IMG/VR virus record: IMGVR_UViG_3300037790_000063
Coordinates: 1 to 38,059 of that record
Length of the DNA stretch: 38,059 nt
Origin: a virus
Lineage: Duplodnaviria; Caudoviricetes
Direction: 5' to 3' (one strand)
Shown here: one piece after another, positions 209-32,810 of the stretch
How positions within the stretch are numbered: the stretch's first letter is position 1
Layout: each line of letters starts with the position of its first letter
Program-made: the position numbers and the translations under genes
Notes under the pieces: generated by a model
Database searches by the model: none
What the model was told of the DNA's origin: nothing
What the model saw: the letters and a program-made list of their open reading frames with translations, nothing else

Positions 209-320
209 AGCGATCTCCACAGGGATTGTCTGTGCAGATGATAGCGGTACTTGACGAATCACACAATCCTATGGTTCATTGTTTGCACTCAACTAACAAC
301 CCGAACAAAAGGAACCCAAC

Positions 321-6859: not shown

Positions 6860-6909
6860 GTGTCGAGATCCCTTGTGCTTGGGCGGATAGTACGACGGTC
6901 AAAGAATCA

Positions 6910-6948
6910 TTGCAAACGCGGACTTCAACAGGTAGTAAAGTTCTAACA
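6910..6948 (+). promoter_or_regulatory. Sigma70-like promoter with overlapping TAG-N7-CTAACA box
   Basis: TTGCAA-17 bp-TAGTAA, then CTAACA and AAGGAG RBS. Confidence 0.6.
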
Positions 6949-15391: not shown

Positions 15392-15658
15392 TCACATCCC
15401 CAATGCTTCTTTGTACATGTCGAGGACTGCTTCTTCCTCGCTGAGATCGTCCTTGTCGCGCTTGCGCATGGCGATGACCTTCTTCATCACCTTCGTGTCA
15501 TAGCCGCGTGCCTTGGCTTCGGCGAAGGATTCCTTGATCTGCTCGGCGATGTCCTTTTTCTCGGCTTCCAGGCGCTCGATGCGCTCGATGAACTGACGAA
15601 GCTCGGCTGCAGTGACACGATAGTTCTCCGACGGTTCTTCAGGTACGGTTGGTAGCAT
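15392..15658 (-). CDS. gapR: GapR/DUF2312 (UPF0335) nucleoid-associated protein
   Basis: ELRQFIERIERLEAEKKDIAEQIKE.FAEAKARGYDTK.....IAMRK...EEEAVLDMYKEALGM matches alphaproteobacterial GapR. Confidence 0.88.
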   Translation of the reverse strand: MLPTVPEEPSENYRVTAAELRQFIERIERLEAEKKDIAEQIKESFAEAKARGYDTKVMKKVIAMRKRDKDDLSEEEAVLDMYKEALGM

Positions 15659-16153: not shown

Positions 16154-16363
16154 TCATTTCAGCGCAACCATCTTCACGGTCTCCATGTTGACAAGATATG
16201 CCGTGTCCTTGCCGATGACGATGCGTGCGCAGGGGCCGATGAGTTCCAGAGAGGTTGCGTTGTGAATTACGGTTTTCTCTCCGTCAATGAAGTCGATTAC
16301 AATGTCGAACTCGCGTTCTCCCTTGGCATCTTCGAGCAGCGTTACGTTATCCATGCGAATCAC
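16154..16363 (-). CDS. Hypothetical protein, first gene of the leftward operon
   Basis: GGAG RBS; start at 16363 or 16354. Confidence 0.65.
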   Translation of the reverse strand: MIRMDNVTLLEDAKGEREFDIVIDFIDGEKTVIHNATSLELIGPCARIVIGKDTAYLVNMETVKMVALK

Positions 16364-16364
16364 T

Positions 16365-16657
16365 CCGTTATTTCCGGTTATGGTAGCAGATTGCTATCGG
16401 ATTTTGAAATTTTCTAGCGAAATATTTTGTAAACAGAGTTTTTAAAGTTGCGTTGGGTTCTGGGGGCAGCAACGAACGCGACGATCCGAATCGGTTCGGG
16501 CTTTTTTGAAACCAGGCGTGTCAAGGGGATTGACAAAAGAAACCAACCGCAGCCGATGATTCTTTTTGTTTCGCACACATTGTGAAAGAAAATGCTTGGC
16601 GAGCGTGACGAATCAGACGATATTGTTAGCAGACGGCAAACAACTAGGAATGACACA
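16365..16657. promoter_or_regulatory. AT-rich divergent control region
   Basis: Non-coding between divergent operons; back-to-back TGTCAA/TTGACA (16519-16535), CACATTGTG, CGAATCA and TGTTAG-N7-CAAACA motifs. Confidence 0.65.
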
Positions 16658-20609: not shown

Positions 20610-20933
20610 TCACGACAAGCCTGCAGCATACTTTTTCAACTCCTCCACGCGCCCCGCAGGAACCCAAAGTGTCACCTGAATATCCCCCGCAGCTTTACGT
20701 GCCTGATAGTACGAGCGGTTGGATCTGCGTGCCCGGAGAACCGCGCGCCCTGCATCTGTCAGAGAAACGCGCCTGTCGGCATCCACCGCAATCTTGCAGC
20801 CCATGATAAGTCCTGCGAGAGTTTTTCGGTGCATTTTCACCTGAGTGTGGTCAACGCTGGCGCGAATCGCTCCATCCGCGTCCAGGTAGCATGGCAGGTT
20901 GTCAGCAATGCGTTGCAAAGCAGCTTTAGACAT
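20610..20933 (-). CDS. Small putative DNA-binding protein (C-terminal ribbon-helix-helix-like)
   Basis: GGAGG RBS; YQARKAAGDIQVTLWVP...EELKKYA pattern. Confidence 0.55.
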   Translation of the reverse strand: MSKAALQRIADNLPCYLDADGAIRASVDHTQVKMHRKTLAGLIMGCKIAVDADRRVSLTDAGRAVLRARRSNRSYYQARKAAGDIQVTLWVPAGRVEELKKYAAGLS

Positions 20934-21004
20934 GTCGGGTACCTCCATAGAGTATGTTACGCAAACTTTCTTACACAATGTGATAGAAAAATGCAAGCAC
21001 CCCA

Positions 21005-21043
21005 TTGACCCGACTCACCCACAATGTTAGAAAACATCTAACA
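21005..21043 (+). promoter_or_regulatory. Promoter with CGACTCA and a perfect TGTTAG-N7-CTAACA palindrome
   Basis: TTGACC-17-TAGAAA; CGACTCA 21011-21017; TGTTAGA-aaaca-TCTAACA 21025-21043. Confidence 0.7.
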
Positions 21044-21064: not shown

Positions 21065-21712
21065 ATGCCTGTCGAAATCAAAAACCGCTTCACCGGACAA
21101 ATCATCAAAATTGTCGACGCGTCGAACCTGTCCGGCGCCTACCTGTCCGACGCTGACCTGTCCGGCGCCTACCTGTCCAACGCCAATCTGTCCGGCGCCT
21201 ACCTGTCCGACGCTGACCTGTCCGACGCTGACCTGTCCGACGCTGACCTGTCCGGCGCTGACCTGTCCGACGCCAACCTGTCCGGCACCAACCTGTCCGA
21301 CGCTGACCTGTCCGACGCCAACCTGTTCGGCGCCAACCTGTCCGGCGCCAATCTGTCCGACGCTGACCTGTCCGACGCTGACCTGTCCGGCGCTGATCTG
21401 TCTGACGCTGACCTGTCCGGCGCTGACCTGTCCGACGCTGACCTGTCCGACGCTGACCTGTCCGACGCTGACCTGCTCTGCACCGGTGACATGACGTACA
21501 TCAAGACGCTTCAGGTTGAGAAATGGAGGATCGGGTACACAGTCGACACGCTCCAAATCGGATGCCAGTGCCACGCCATCGAAAAGTGGCGCAAGTGGAA
21601 CACGCCCGCCGGGAGGAAATGGATCGCCAGTATGGATTCAGATGCGACGGAATGGGCCGAAAAATACCTCGACCTCATCTTGCAACTTATCGACGCGGGG
21701 AGGACAGAGTGA
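21065..21712 (+). CDS. Pentapeptide repeat protein
   Basis: About 23 A(D/N/Y)LS(D/G) repeats encoded by 15-bp DNA repeats; C-term [11 protein letters not shown] domain. Confidence 0.92.
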
Positions 21713-22395: not shown

Positions 22396-22929
22396 ATGGG
22401 ACAAAATACGTTGTACAAAGGGCACGATTTGAAGACTCTGGTCGATGCCGGGAAAACTACACGAGAGATCGCTGAGATAATCGGCGGCTCCGTAACCCAA
22501 TCTGGGGTTAGAACTGCGCTCAACAGACGCGGCTTGACGTCGGTCAGAAAACCGCCTGAAACCATCCGAAAGATTGCGGAAGAAATGCGACCATCGGATG
22601 CGGTACAATATCTTCTCGGAATCATCGACGAGATTGTACCCGGCCTATCAGGTGATGATCACGAGATTGACGATCTTGATGTCAATTTCACACCCCAGCA
22701 GCGCAGAATCCTGATCTACCTGGTTGAAGCTGAAGGCCGAACGGTAACGAGACGGGCAATCGCTGAAACTCTCTACTCGACGCGAAGCGATGACGATTAC
22801 CCAGACGAGAAAATAATCGACGTCCACATATCCCATATCAGGAAGAAACTCCCGGAAACATTCGGAGTAATTGAGACCGCCTGGGGCCGTGGGTATCGGT
22901 TCGTACTTGCCGAATCACTAGGCGAATGA
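22396..22929 (+). CDS. Transcription regulator: N-terminal HTH plus OmpR/CtrA-type winged helix, no receiver domain
   Basis: GGAG RBS; G.T..EIA..IGGSVTQSGV....NRRGL; LY.....PDEKIIDVHISHIRKKL....IETAWGRGY; start may be 22348. Confidence 0.8.
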   Translation: MGQNTLYKGHDLKTLVDAGKTTREIAEIIGGSVTQSGVRTALNRRGLTSVRKPPETIRKIAEEMRPSDAVQYLLGIIDEIVPGLSGDDHEIDDLDVNFTPQQRRILIYLVEAEGRTVTRRAIAETLYSTRSDDDYPDEKIIDVHISHIRKKLPETFGVIETAWGRGYRFVLAESLGE

Positions 22930-22945
22930 TAGAAAATATCTAACA
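22907..22945 (+). promoter_or_regulatory. Promoter with CGAATCA and TGATAG-N7-CTAACA box
   Basis: TTGCCG-17-TAGAAA; CGAATCA 22911-22917; followed by AAGGAG RBS. Confidence 0.65.
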
Positions 22946-28677: not shown

Positions 28678-28821
28678 TAGATCAGCGAGTGCCGAAGGTA
28701 TCGGTTACTTCGCCTGCTAAGCGAGAGGTCGCGGGTTCGAGTCCCGTCAGCACTTCGGTGTTGTAGCTCAGATGGTTAGAGCGCTTACATTTCCGGTATC
28801 GCTTGTTGCCTCGCTGATCTA
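28678..28821 (+). ncRNA. YrlA-like Y RNA with circularly permuted tRNA domain
   Basis: Terminal stem TAGATCAGCGAG/CTCGCTGATCTA; T arm GCGGG-TTCGAGT-CCCGT; acceptor CAGCAC-TTCG-GTGTTG closed by a tetraloop; D arm GCTC-AGATGGTTA-GAGC; adjacent to Ro60. Confidence 0.88.
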
Positions 28822-28852
28822 ATCGCCAGTCGGTCTGACACGGAGATACCCG

Positions 28853-30145
28853 ATGCGACTGAACACGGCACCCAAATCCATCAAGACACACGAAGGCGCA
28901 AAGGCGAAGCATATCACTGCCGAGCAGTCCCTTCGTCGTTCCGTTTTATCCTGTATGTTGTGGGAGCGCGAATTTTACGAAGACGGGCAAGACATTGCGG
29001 CCCGCATCGAAACATTGGCCGATCAGGTTGACAAAGACGTGCTGTCCCGTCTCGCGATTGAAGCGCGCACCGAGTTCAACCTGCGTCACGTCCCCTTGCT
29101 TCTTCTGAACTCCCTCGTCAAACGCGGCGGCCCTGGGGTAGCCGACACGATCGCTAATGTCGTGCAGCGCCCCGACGAAATGATGGAGCTCCTTGCGATC
29201 TATTGGCGCAACGGCCGGAGACCTCTTGCCAAGCAGTTGCAGCGCGGTCTCGCAAAGGCAATCCGCAAGTTCGACGAATATCAGCTGGCGAAATATAACC
29301 GTGACGGGGTCGTGAAGCTGCGTGATGTGCTGTTTTTGTCGCACGCGAAACCCACATCCTCCGAGCAGGCAGAACTGTTCAAGAAAATCGCCGAAAACCG
29401 GCTCACTGCACCCGATACGTGGGAAGTTGGTCTATCCGGTGGTGCGGACAAACGTGAGACATTTGAACGTCTCCTGCGTGAGCAGAAGCTCGGCTATCTC
29501 GCCCTATTGCGGAACCTTCGTGGAATGACGGAAACCGGCGTGGACGTTGATCTGATCCGTGACGCCATCATTGCACGGCGCGGTGCTCATCGCGTCCTGC
29601 CGTTCCGCTATGTAGCGGCGGCTCGCGCCTGCCCTCAGATGGAACCCTATCTTGACCAAGCGCTTTGCGAAGCAGTTCAGTCTGGACCGAAGCTGGAAGG
29701 AAAAACGATCATCCTGGTGGACGTATCCGGATCCATGGGAGTGAGACTGTCACAAAAGTCCGACATGAACCGAATGGATGCTGCTGCGACACTTGCTTCC
29801 GTTGTAAATGCGGATCGTCGGGTTCTGACGTTCTCGAACCATCTCGTTGAAGTCCCTCCGCGCTTTGGTATGGCTGGGGTCGATTCAATCATTCGATCTC
29901 AACCGCACGGTGGGACAAATTTGGGTGAAGCGATACGATACGTCAATGCCATGACTCATGACCGTCTGATCGTCATCACCGACGAACAGTCGCATTCACT
30001 TGTACCTGACCCTGTCGTTGACAAGGCATACGTGATAAACGTTGCCTCGTATCGGAACGGCGTTGGTTACGGGAAATGGACCCACATTGACGGTTTCTCC
30101 GAATCGGTACTACGGTTTATTCAGGAAAGTGAACGTGACGGGTGA
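28853..30145 (+). CDS. rsr: Ro60/TROVE-domain RNA-binding protein (Rsr) with vWA domain
   Basis: THEG, FYEDG, R...NLRHVP, RPDE..E.LA, FDEYQLAKY, LRDVLFLSH.KP, ALLRNL, LPFRY, MIDAS DVSGSM, ITDEQ. Confidence 0.93.
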   Translation: MRLNTAPKSIKTHEGAKAKHITAEQSLRRSVLSCMLWEREFYEDGQDIAARIETLADQVDKDVLSRLAIEARTEFNLRHVPLLLLNSLVKRGGPGVADTIANVVQRPDEMMELLAIYWRNGRRPLAKQLQRGLAKAIRKFDEYQLAKYNRDGVVKLRDVLFLSHAKPTSSEQAELFKKIAENRLTAPDTWEVGLSGGADKRETFERLLREQKLGYLALLRNLRGMTETGVDVDLIRDAIIARRGAHRVLPFRYVAAARACPQMEPYLDQALCEAVQSGPKLEGKTIILVDVSGSMGVRLSQKSDMNRMDAAATLASVVNADRRVLTFSNHLVEVPPRFGMAGVDSIIRSQPHGGTNLGEAIRYVNAMTHDRLIVITDEQSHSLVPDPVVDKAYVINVASYRNGVGYGKWTHIDGFSESVLRFIQESERDG

Positions 30146-30335: not shown

Positions 30336-32569
30336 GCGCGCAAGTATTGGTCGGTCACGTCGACCTCTGGCTGAACGGACGAGTGCATATAGATTGTCGG
30401 GCGCAGATTATCTTCCCAGACGAGTGCCATCTTTGCCCGACCAACATCACGATACCCGAGCGACTCAAGCATGGCCTTGCGTTTGTTTGTCGCCAGTCGT
30501 AGCCCACGTTCCTTGATCAATTTGTCAAGCATCCGGCTCGAAAGCATGCCGTTACGGAAACCAAGCGTACCGTTGGCTGCTGCCTCCAACACTTCGGCCT
30601 CGATACCTCCAATGGATTTAGCAATCGCCTCGTCTGTCGTGGATGTGTCAGGCGCACGGTGGCAGCTGGTGGCCGGGTTCAGATGATCAGGGATCTGATA
30701 GTGCATCAGGTAGTGTGCCACGGCGGAATAACCGCCCGCCTTGGCCCAATTGTACAGGTTCGGGAAGTATTGACCACCCATGCCTGCCGCTTCGATGTCG
30801 GCTGCTGATTGCTGAGCCGTGAAGAAGATGGCATACCGACGGTCATTTCGGGACTTGATGATCGCGTCCTGATGGTTGGTGCAGAACAACCAGTTCGTGT
30901 AGTTCCGAGCCATACGCTTTTCCTGCTGCATGCCACGAATTTCGATGTAATCGTTGGTGATCTTGTCCTTCAGATCATCAAGCATCTCGCGACGATCACC
31001 CATGTGGATCTCTTCGACGATCACAAACAGAGAACGTTCCAGGAAGCTGTTGAACTTCTCTCCCATCTCTTTTGCGCGCGGGCGGTGGACGTGGTTCAAC
31101 CCAACAGCATGTGCGATACATTCGGCAACGAAAGTCTTACCGTTACCTTCCGCACCCTGAAGCACAGGGGCCCAGCGAAATTTGACGCCGCGGTTCTGAA
31201 CCACGGCTGCGCTGTATGCCAGCAGGATCTCTCGGTCACGCTGGTTTGGCAGGATACGCTGAAGGAAATCCAGATACGGCGTGACGTCTCCCTGGACCAT
31301 CTCCACAGGATCTGGACTGAAGGTGTTCACTGAGTCCCCGTCAACCTCCCCGGGTTCCTTATTTGGGTCAAAAATGCCGTACTTCACCTTGGGGAACCGA
31401 TGCGTCCGGTTCTCGGTGAAGGCGATGAATGCGTTCTTCTCAGGCTGGGTGCCATCCGGGTTCATCTGGAAGATTGAACCGCCGTAGAACGCTTTGAATT
31501 GTTCCGGTTTGTACAACGCCCCGTCAGGCGTCAGCATCCGGTGTTGGTCCGCGATGTAGACACATCCCTTGAAGTGCTCGATCATCTCATGGATGCCCAT
31601 ATAGACTTCCGGCGCAACGACAGCATTCTCTGTGTCACTCGTTGCCGCGGGAACCGTAGGGAACGGGTTATCTTGACGCCGGGGACGGTCGTACACTCGG
31701 CTGCACATTCGCGCGGCGTCACCGACCGTTTTGTTCCGGTAGTCATCGCGCCTTTCGTACTTTTCACGCATCAGGGCGCTGCGACGGAATAGCCTGTCCA
31801 TGCGGGGCATGTCCTTGCCGGTCCAGAACGCGAGGTGAGCCATGAGTGCGGCATCTGCAGAACTGTGATCGAAGCTGTTCGGATCACCATTATAATCCGG
31901 GTACAACCGGCACAGCACAGGGTCAGCCTCCCACAGCTGACGAACCGTGGCCTTTCCGCCAAATGCTGCAGCGGCGCCGCCGGACGACGACAACATGCGT
32001 GAGATGAGTTCGTCGTCGTCATCGGGTCCAGTGTAAGCCGGATCTCGACCTTCCGGGAGCTCACCGAGAACGGTCCTTTCCGGCACCAGGTAACGCAGTG
32101 TTGGGGTCCAGTCGAGGTCAAGGTTCAACGCACCACCGATTGGGTTCCAACCTTGCCCGAACGCAATGAAACGACCCTCGGTGTAGAACTCCAACCAACC
32201 GGCCCATTTGTGCTTTCGGTCCTGCAGTTGCGACGGGTCACACTTGCCGAGAATGTGCAGCCCGGTCCCGGATTGCGACACCTCGCCCCACGCTCCGTTG
32301 AACGCACTGAAGATTGCTGTTGCCTCGGCAGTCCACTGTCCGGTCATTTGGTCAAGACATTTGTCTAGGTCGACGAAAAAGAACGGATCGTTTGCCGTCA
32401 GGACAAACGCCACCGGGAGACCACTTGCTTCTGCGTCCGCGTAGCATAACCAATTCGCCGGATTGTGGGCATCGACGACCTTGCCTGTATGATCACACGG
32501 AAGCTTATCGCCGTCCGCCGTCAGAATGTAATTCATGAACTGCGGTGGCAGAGTTTCACTTATGTGCAT
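30317..32569 (-). CDS. NrS-1-like primase-polymerase fused to SF3 helicase (DUF5906-like)
   Basis: FVDLDKC, EVSQSGTGLH, EFY..GRF; DHSSADAAL..HLAFWTG; GAEGNGKT Walker A; TNH.DA....DRR. Confidence 0.88.
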   Translation of the reverse strand: MHISETLPPQFMNYILTADGDKLPCDHTGKVVDAHNPANWLCYADAEASGLPVAFVLTANDPFFFVDLDKCLDQMTGQWTAEATAIFSAFNGAWGEVSQSGTGLHILGKCDPSQLQDRKHKWAGWLEFYTEGRFIAFGQGWNPIGGALNLDLDWTPTLRYLVPERTVLGELPEGRDPAYTGPDDDDELISRMLSSSGGAAAAFGGKATVRQLWEADPVLCRLYPDYNGDPNSFDHSSADAALMAHLAFWTGKDMPRMDRLFRRSALMREKYERRDDYRNKTVGDAARMCSRVYDRPRRQDNPFPTVPAATSDTENAVVAPEVYMGIHEMIEHFKGCVYIADQHRMLTPDGALYKPEQFKAFYGGSIFQMNPDGTQPEKNAFIAFTENRTHRFPKVKYGIFDPNKEPGEVDGDSVNTFSPDPVEMVQGDVTPYLDFLQRILPNQRDREILLAYSAAVVQNRGVKFRWAPVLQGAEGNGKTFVAECIAHAVGLNHVHRPRAKEMGEKFNSFLERSLFVIVEEIHMGDRREMLDDLKDKITNDYIEIRGMQQEKRMARNYTNWLFCTNHQDAIIKSRNDRRYAIFFTAQQSAADIEAAGMGGQYFPNLYNWAKAGGYSAVAHYLMHYQIPDHLNPATSCHRAPDTSTTDEAIAKSIGGIEAEVLEAAANGTLGFRNGMLSSRMLDKLIKERGLRLATNKRKAMLESLGYRDVGRAKMALVWEDNLRPTIYMHSSVQPEVDVTDQYLRAQGYVV

Positions 32570-32810
32570 CCGTCACCCCCAGAGCCACGGCTTGATCCCA
32601 CAAGTTCTCACGGTCATGTTTGGCTACCGCGAGCCACAGCGCCCGGTAGTTCTTGAAATGGTAACGAACAGTAGCGGCACTGGTATCGACGGCGCATTCA
32701 CGCGCCAGGTTGTCGTAAGTGACCTCAGACAATCCGATTCGAACCGCCAGTTTTACCCCGGCTTGAATGATCATCGCGCGCCGATGGTCTTTATGGAGTC
32801 GCTTGCTCAT
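32556..32810 (-). CDS. TetR-like HTH protein
   Basis: IIQAGVKLAVRIGL..VT...LA..C....S.ATVRYHF. Confidence 0.7.
   Translation of the reverse strand: MSKRLHKDHRRAMIIQAGVKLAVRIGLSEVTYDNLARECAVDTSAATVRYHFKNYRALWLAVAKHDRENLWDQAVALGVTDAHK

Follow-up and report, generated by a model that had tools for sequence, protein, structure and literature searches.

The gene at positions 22396 to 22929 (+ strand) of the DNA analysed here, a 38-kb virus record about 50% complete that is referred to in its whole length (38,059 nucleotides) as the window, encodes a protein of 177 residues in which a helix-turn-helix (HTH), a helical middle part and a winged helix related to CtrA follow each other without a receiver domain (Table 1). 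The recognition helix of this winged helix is changed from that of CtrA, and the window carries five copies of a palindrome, GTTAG-N7-CTAAC, which take two fixed positions at predicted promoters. Our tentative reading, to which we give a little less than an even chance, is that this CtrA-related regulator works independently of phosphorylation, likely binds the palindrome as an altered CtrA box, and acts as an early-to-late switch on promoters activated by the GcrA of the host.

The window contains portal, capsid-type, terminase-type, thymidylate synthase and primase-type genes (all but portal named from translations alone), together with a GapR-like gene and a TerB gene recognised by Pfam search, and GANTC is under-represented (91 sites against 131 expected). 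From this gene content, the scarcity of GANTC and the hosts of relatives, we infer an alphaproteobacterial host. Most of the region is present in three public runs labelled pond metagenome, the contigs of three of four public runs match the regulator gene without listed differences, and no sequence variant of the region was detected in the public runs checked; no RNA run is listed for it. With respect to the other genes, the GapR-like nucleoid protein is encoded at 15392-15658 (-; Pfam, 113.7 bits), and at least 12 of the phage loci fetched have a GapR-like gene no more than 10 kb from a CtrA-type gene. A TerB-like gene and a small membrane-type ORF (321-901, +) interrupt the block of structural genes on its opposite strand, and at 28680-28853 and 28853-30145 (+) a TROVE/Ro60-like gene follows a tRNA-like sequence, possibly its Y-RNA-like partner.

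Table 1. Location of the regulator gene, its protein domains, and the predicted promoters and candidate sites in the window.
Positions	Strand	Feature	Basis
22396-22929	+	Regulator gene, 177 aa: HTH, helical middle part and CtrA-related winged helix, without receiver	ORF, Pfam, homologue search, AlphaFold2
22414-22536	+	N-terminal three-helix HTH, residues 7-47; GcrA-like shape without the GcrA base readers; optional in the family	Model and profile comparisons
22558-22671	+	Conserved helical middle part, residues 55-92, occupying the place of the receiver	Model and alignment
22681-22902	+	OmpR/PhoB-type winged helix, residues 96-169, grouping with CtrA	Pfam, NCBIfam, tree
22810-22848	+	Recognition helix, residues 139-151, altered relative to the invariant CtrA helix	Comparison with 78 bacterial CtrA loci
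281-297	.	Palindrome, 1 mismatch; 14 nt upstream of a leftward -35; between GcrA-type motif and terB-like gene	
238-266	-	Predicted promoter TTGTGT-N17-TATCAT, GANTC at start of spacer; serves the post-capsid gene (ATG at 208)	
6931-6947	.	Palindrome, 1 mismatch; over a rightward -10, and 15 nt upstream of the leftward portal promoter's -35	
6887-6915	-	Predicted portal promoter TTGCAA-N17-TACTAT, GANTC in spacer	
16605-16641	+	Predicted promoter GTGACG-N16-TAGCAG; GcrA-type motif 16609-16615; palindrome 16625-16641 (1 mismatch) over -10	
21005-21042	+	Predicted promoter TTGACC-N17-TAGAAA of the regulator's operon; GcrA-type motif 21011-21017; perfect palindrome 21026-21042 over -10	
22907-22944	+	Predicted promoter TTGCCG-N17-TAGAAA of downstream genes; GcrA-type motif 22911-22917; palindrome 22928-22944 (1 mismatch) over -10	
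20982-20998	.	Weaker candidate site, best non-training matrix match (12.1), just upstream of the 21005 promoter	
16382-16398	.	Weaker candidate site, 2 mismatches, matrix 10.8, ahead of a leftward operon starting near 16354	

Domain anatomy, protein family and the CtrA-related winged helix

The reading frame of the regulator, which contains the amino acid strings quoted in the preliminary description, is preceded by a GGAG ribosome site, and this site and the matching public contigs support it as a gene. An AlphaFold2 model built with a 90-sequence alignment (mean pLDDT 93.6) placed three N-terminal helices at residues 12-17, 22-29 and 35-44, four helices of the middle part at residues 57-62, 66-80, 82-85 and 90-94, and the winged helix at residues 100 to 171. 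The lack of a receiver domain, proposed before from the sequence, was confirmed both by Pfam, which gave no match to Response_reg, and by the model, which holds no such domain. In the family alignment M64, A69 and L73 of the middle part are nearly invariant, and dimerisation may take place through this part. A PHROGs search of the regulator returned only winged-helix families and weak HTH matches; in the Atlas it came closest, at 0.89, to a viral Trans_reg_C cluster, which we take as a lead only.

The full homologue search yielded 166 representatives at E<=1e-10, and among the best 150 of these the middle part together with the winged helix was found in 139. All three parts were present in 103 of the best 150, 36 gave a score for the middle part and the winged helix alone, and 11 for the winged helix only, a division between long and short forms that is partly circular because the long forms had served to make the N-domain profile. 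Of these 36 relatives, about 26 start at the middle part; the short forms measure 114-142 residues with one exception, and one of them sits in a complete genome. Judging from these counts, the family core consists of the middle part joined to the winged helix, with the HTH as an optional addition. Cell genomes seldom encode a member (a match in 1 of 401 and in 4 of 401 sampled, at the thresholds used), and the relatives make up a large phage family, uncharacterised so far. A single-protein scan of viral contigs gave no relative of the regulator, and the same scan of metagenomes gave an identical short contig only. In G579:C2 (L343 and L347), two family genes, one of the short and one of the long form, stand in tandem directly after lysis-type genes.

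The CtrA-like nature of the C-terminus, also noted before, was substantiated by three lines of evidence. Pfam Trans_reg_C matched residues 96-169 with 61 bits (cut-off 26.2). The top NCBIfam match of the regulator was CtrA (NF045991), covering only residues 77-167 with 41.6 bits against a cut-off of 350, and CtrA was likewise the top match for all seven proteins tested, all far below the cut-off. In a tree of 79 domains and 87 columns, of which the bootstrap had not fully settled and the outgroup was not chosen for alphaproteobacterial paralogues, 25 other OmpR-type domains fell all on one side of a branch supported at 100/98, and 25 family members formed a 99/94 group with nine receiver-less viral proteins. 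A scan of viral contigs identified 80 loci with CtrA-type domains, many of them receiver-less and with varied partner domains; six phage loci (L010, L015, L018, L019, L049 and L057) encode CtrA-like proteins with a full-length but strongly degenerate receiver.

The regulator shares with CtrA the winged helix, the KIIDV start of the recognition helix and the IETxWGRGY wing, and differs from it in the missing receiver and in the rest of the recognition helix. The helix KIIDVF[IV]CKLRKK was invariant in 78 of 78 bacterial CtrA loci (recovered from 80), whereas the regulator departs from it at four positions, F to H, C to S, K to H and L to I. Most family members keep the CtrA-like residues (K in 62, D in 52, V in 70, C in 52, K in 52 and R in 90 of 90 members), as would be expected if the protein were mainly a host-takeover factor, that is, an unphosphorylatable mimic of CtrA that occupies or blocks host CtrA sites and thereby stalls division or motility. 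Carriers of the gene without boxes of their own leave host DNA as a possible target, and the window encodes with the GapR-like protein another host-chromosome factor. For the regulator itself we hold this explanation quite improbable, since it has lost the F, C and K of the CtrA helix and the window offers matching phage sites.

The palindrome and the predicted promoters

The preliminary description had named four promoters, at 251, 16605, 21005 and 22907, as carrying both a GcrA-type motif and a CtrA-like box. The GcrA-type motif, YGAKTCK as given in the available text of PMC4647560, was present at all four. The canonical CtrA box TTAA-N7-TTAA was absent from them (with up to one mismatch it occurs once in the window, against 4.04 expected, and not at the named places), but alignment of the four places gave the palindrome GTTAG-N7-CTAAC at each, and a fifth copy was then found at 6931. 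Selected, like both promoter patterns described below, after the sites had been seen, the palindrome occurs with up to one mismatch in 5 copies against 0.37 expected, a number reached in 0 of 100 shuffles, and each of 15 spacers other than 7 gives 0 or 1 copy. Scanning of all 16,384 palindromic dyads gave it a p value of about 1e-6, or about 0.016 after correction, and the dyads that matched or exceeded it were attributed to coding repeats (one was checked). In four of the five copies the left half overlaps the 'TA' of a -10, which inflates the apparent symmetry; sites with two mismatches, taken together, do not exceed chance.

Four copies (6931, 16625, 21026 and 22928) lie over the -10 of predicted sigma70-type promoters that read rightward. 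The named promoter at 251 does carry the GcrA-type motif and the palindrome, but it reads better leftward (TTGTGT-N17-TATCAT, from 266 to 238). The pattern TTGnnn-N17-TAnnAT has only three matches in the window, and two of the three, both holding GANTC and both pointing at structural genes, have a palindrome 14 and 15 nt upstream of the -35 (binomial about 7e-5, post hoc). Taking the start about 7 bases past the -10, the centres of these two sites lie near -58 (281) and -59 (6931). The portal promoter and the rightward promoter at 6910-6938 use one common -35 hexamer; these back-to-back promoters span 6887-6938, and the common hexamer TTGCAA is self-complementary. The site noted earlier at the 3' end of the regulator gene does exist, but belongs to the promoter of the next gene; the candidate site for autoregulation could be that at 21026, the one perfect copy, which heads the regulator's own operon, with no + strand terminator listed between 21005 and 22396. 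The first gene of this operon encodes a pentapeptide-repeat protein (21065-21712, +). A small gene at 20610-20951 (-) diverges from the 21005 promoter and the weaker site at 20982-20998 overlaps its promoter region; its product has no Pfam match, and its C-terminus presumably resembles a ribbon-helix-helix.

The palindrome keeps the 7-base spacer of the CtrA box and differs from TTAA-N7-TTAA in two inner bases. It might be bound as a degenerate box by the CtrA of the host, in which case the phage would follow the cell cycle of its host (GcrA on, CtrA off) and use its CtrA-like protein for something else. A GcrA motif with a site at -10 copies the layout of ctrA P1, a promoter turned on by GcrA and shut off by CtrA from the -10 (PMC11264516, available text). 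Binding of host CtrA to sites in several phages of alphaproteobacteria is described in PMC9437464, and at fliQ a half-site CTAA is tolerated by CtrA (PMC11264516). We nevertheless consider host CtrA an improbable reader of the palindrome, since a TTAA half-site is found in none of the five copies and all five deviate in the same way, and since the altered box is not enriched in the bacterial loci examined: over 1.4 Mb, the counts of TAA-N-TTAAC have their maximum at spacer 7 (48 against 12-29 at others), TAG-N-CTAAC shows no such peak (4 against 2-9), and GTTAG-N7-CTAAC is absent.

The palindrome was also searched for in other phages. Among eight other carrier records, none held more than one copy or an excess of CtrA boxes (exact boxes, 0 or 1), so that the gene needs no such box; the box is missing also from G449, the helix of which likewise reads ISHIRKK. 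Palindromes in G449 and G739 were rejected as regulator targets because they adjoin a cro-like gene, where operators of phage repressors are expected; that of G739 sits between cro-like and cI-like genes, and both are likely repressor operators. A palindrome in G448 was rejected as a coding repeat. A scan of a sequence collection for the combined GANTC and palindrome pattern proved too loose, the matches being mostly single ones. Five phages related to that of the window by capsid protein (46-58% identity, all fragments) have neither the gene nor an excess of the box, and are too distant to inform.

Inverted repeats of such spacing are typical of HTH repressors. The palindrome could be the operator of another phage protein, either a cI/Cro-type repressor encoded in the unsequenced half, or one of the TetR-like or small leftward proteins of the window, and the regulator would then be an accessory early regulator with other targets. 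The record being about 50% complete, a repressor may be missing from view, and a TetR_N-like ORF is present at 32556-32810 (E 6e-4). Five carrier phages (L006, L166, L025, L340 and L342) have the family gene in an early operon, positioned downstream of a cro-like gene, and there it has no box of its own. Furthermore, six unrelated phage loci (L218, L228, L268, L271, L275 and L283) contain 6-14 copies of GTTAG-N7-CTAAC each, five of the six in the form GTTAGTG-N3-CACTAAC and often immediately ahead of ribosome sites; the fetched 6-20 kb contained no CtrA-like gene. We regard this explanation as unlikely, though it deserves weight, because the box departs from that of CtrA by two base changes and retains its spacer, the only CtrA-type gene of the window has a changed helix, and the constant upstream distance of two copies to structural promoters is left unexplained by a plain repressor.

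The N-terminal domain compared with GcrA

The N-terminus had been described as parallel to the GcrA DNA-binding domain, with the caveat that its recognition residues differ. Concerning the fold, the parallel holds: the model has the same small three-helix HTH ending in R-x-G-L as GcrA of Caulobacter crescentus (PF07750, 5yiu), and the DNA-binding domain of the latter ranked first of 48,161 chains (Z 4.9), in a tie with DosR (4.4) and VirB (4.3). Foldseek with the N-domain model gave nothing at E<=0.001 and no GcrA among 45 rows, a result that rules out nothing. By hhalign the N-domain matched GcrA at 97.8% (19 domains excised via a GcrA motif, hence canonical ones), with the controls nearly equal at 97.1% (24 HTHs, namely 23 of ECF sigma region 4 and one LuxR-like). 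The regulator scored 14.8 bits on the GcrA profile against 8.5 on that of sigma region 4; set beside true GcrA domains it gave 10.6 bits against their 81-105, and the GcrA score exceeded the sigma region 4 score in only 24 of 90 family members. Pfam GcrA did not match the regulator at E<=10, and PF07750 was seen in at least 7 of 117 homologues among the matches listed, the best (23.9) below the cut-off of 26.9, as were all matches seen.

With respect to function the parallel fails. GcrA reads bases with R33, N34, I37, G38, H41 and R42 (PMC5887438, available text), and the regulator has Q, S, R, T, N and R at these six positions, keeping R42 alone. The corresponding family columns hold Y in 29, D in 20, R in 74, S in 17, R in 25 and R in 73 of 90 members, so that the position of I37, which belongs to the methyl pocket, is Arg in 74 of 90. 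The CCCH zinc finger through which GcrA interacts with sigma70 is absent, since the regulator contains no Cys and the motif was found in 0 of the 150 best relatives. Taken from these comparisons, the GcrA likeness of the N-domain appears real but weak, extending to shape and probably not to base reading.

The preliminary description had gone further and proposed that one protein reads both cell-cycle motifs, the N-domain methylated GANTC and the C-domain the CtrA-like box. Besides the top structural row and the preference for the GcrA profile over sigma region 4 given above, the position of YGAKTCK is in its favour, as it lies 15-28 nt left of 5 of 5 palindromes against 3% of window positions, only the copy at 6931 being independent because the other four had been picked for the motif. 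The spacing between the two motifs is, however, not constant. In two carriers (G446 and G448) GANTC is almost missing, with 3 and 6 sites against 47 and 80 expected, and the latter is a complete provirus with a gene 46% identical to that of the window; the persistence of the gene in phages nearly free of GANTC leaves the double reading unsupported. Considering in addition the five replaced base readers, the replaced methyl-pocket residues, the missing zinc finger, the low scores beside true GcrA domains and the relatives without HTH (about 26 of the best 150), we judge the dual reader most improbable. From the earlier description there thus remain the CtrA-related winged helix, the lack of a receiver, the GcrA-like shape of the HTH and the two-motif signature of the promoters, but not a hybrid of GcrA and CtrA that reads both motifs. 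No GcrA gene above the cut-off was detected in the window or in four carrier records.

Known phage regulators and the proposed switch

A receiver-less CtrA of roseophage RDJL-Phi1, placed beside gafA, is already published (PMC6363796, available text). The protein, gp37 (151 aa; present also in RDJL-Phi2 and RDJL3), is annotated as receiver-less CtrA in the RDJL-Phi1 record, and like the regulator it is a phage CtrA-type winged helix without receiver; unlike the regulator, it has a near-host helix, scores 85.7 against 41.6 bits on the CtrA model, and lacks the N-terminal HTH and the middle part. Receiver-less CtrA-type winged helices are likewise encoded by Rhodobacter RcD-type phages, Paracoccus phage vB_PmaS-R3 and Rhizobium phage RHph_X2_30, where the genes are annotated as HTH or 'CzcR-like response regulator' and the N- or C-terminal partner domains differ; the accessible text of PMC8601537 makes no mention of the gene in RcD phages. 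GcrA homologues are encoded by phiCbK-like phages (PMC9437464, in the portion available). In the literature searched, which included few subscription journals, we found no paper on the three-part family or on the GTTAG-N7-CTAAC box; in the literature searched we likewise found neither phosphorylation-free sequence-specific DNA binding by a receiver-less phage CtrA-like regulator nor a target of any phage CtrA-like protein. The circuit had been called possibly undescribed, which applies to the architecture and the box, but not to a receiver-less CtrA in a phage. The protein alone is unsurprising, and what is new is the candidate shift of specificity together with the geometry of the proposed switch.

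In the switch that we tentatively favour, host sigma70 and host GcrA would start the GANTC-bearing promoters, as their motif suggests. The regulator, made from the 21005 operon, would dimerise through its middle helices without phosphorylation and, bound over the -10 at 6931, 16625, 21026 and 22928, would shut off the early promoters that read rightward, among them its own. From the sites some 58 bases upstream (6931 and 281), it would activate the leftward portal and post-capsid promoters, and at 6931 one site would serve both repression and activation. The N-terminal HTH may provide an optional extra contact with DNA or polymerase, and would not be a reader of methyl-GANTC. Joining the changed helix to the changed box gives the simplest account of the mechanism. 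As in CtrA, two half-sites would be placed 7 bases apart and repression, as proposed for the phage, would be exerted from the -10; the differences lie in the sequence, GTTAG-N7-CTAAC against TTAA-N7-TTAA, and in the candidate activating sites, near -58 against -35. Against the switch stand this distance, as activation by CtrA takes place from the -35 position, not from -58 (PMC11264516, available text), the 0 of 8 carriers with the box, and the record being about 50% complete.

A bolder version, which we consider possible though rather doubtful, is that of an orthogonal CtrA built on a DNA-binding domain captured from CtrA, in which helix and box have changed together (TTAA-N7-TTAA to TTAG-N7-CTAA) and binding is free of phosphorylation. 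The S phase of the host would then start infection via GcrA-activated promoters, and the phage variant of CtrA, not that of the host, would use one shared site to silence early genes and to turn on the structural ones.

Sites for host CtrA and truncated CtrA genes have been described in alphaproteobacterial phages, to which the window adds a concrete candidate pair of protein and site in two geometries, repression at -10 and activation near -58. If the proposal is false, the regulator gene adds one member to an accessory family that is already widespread. If it is true, the phage copies the GcrA-on/CtrA-off logic of its host while escaping host CtrA, and the regulator would be a natural specificity mutant from which to learn how CtrA reads its box.
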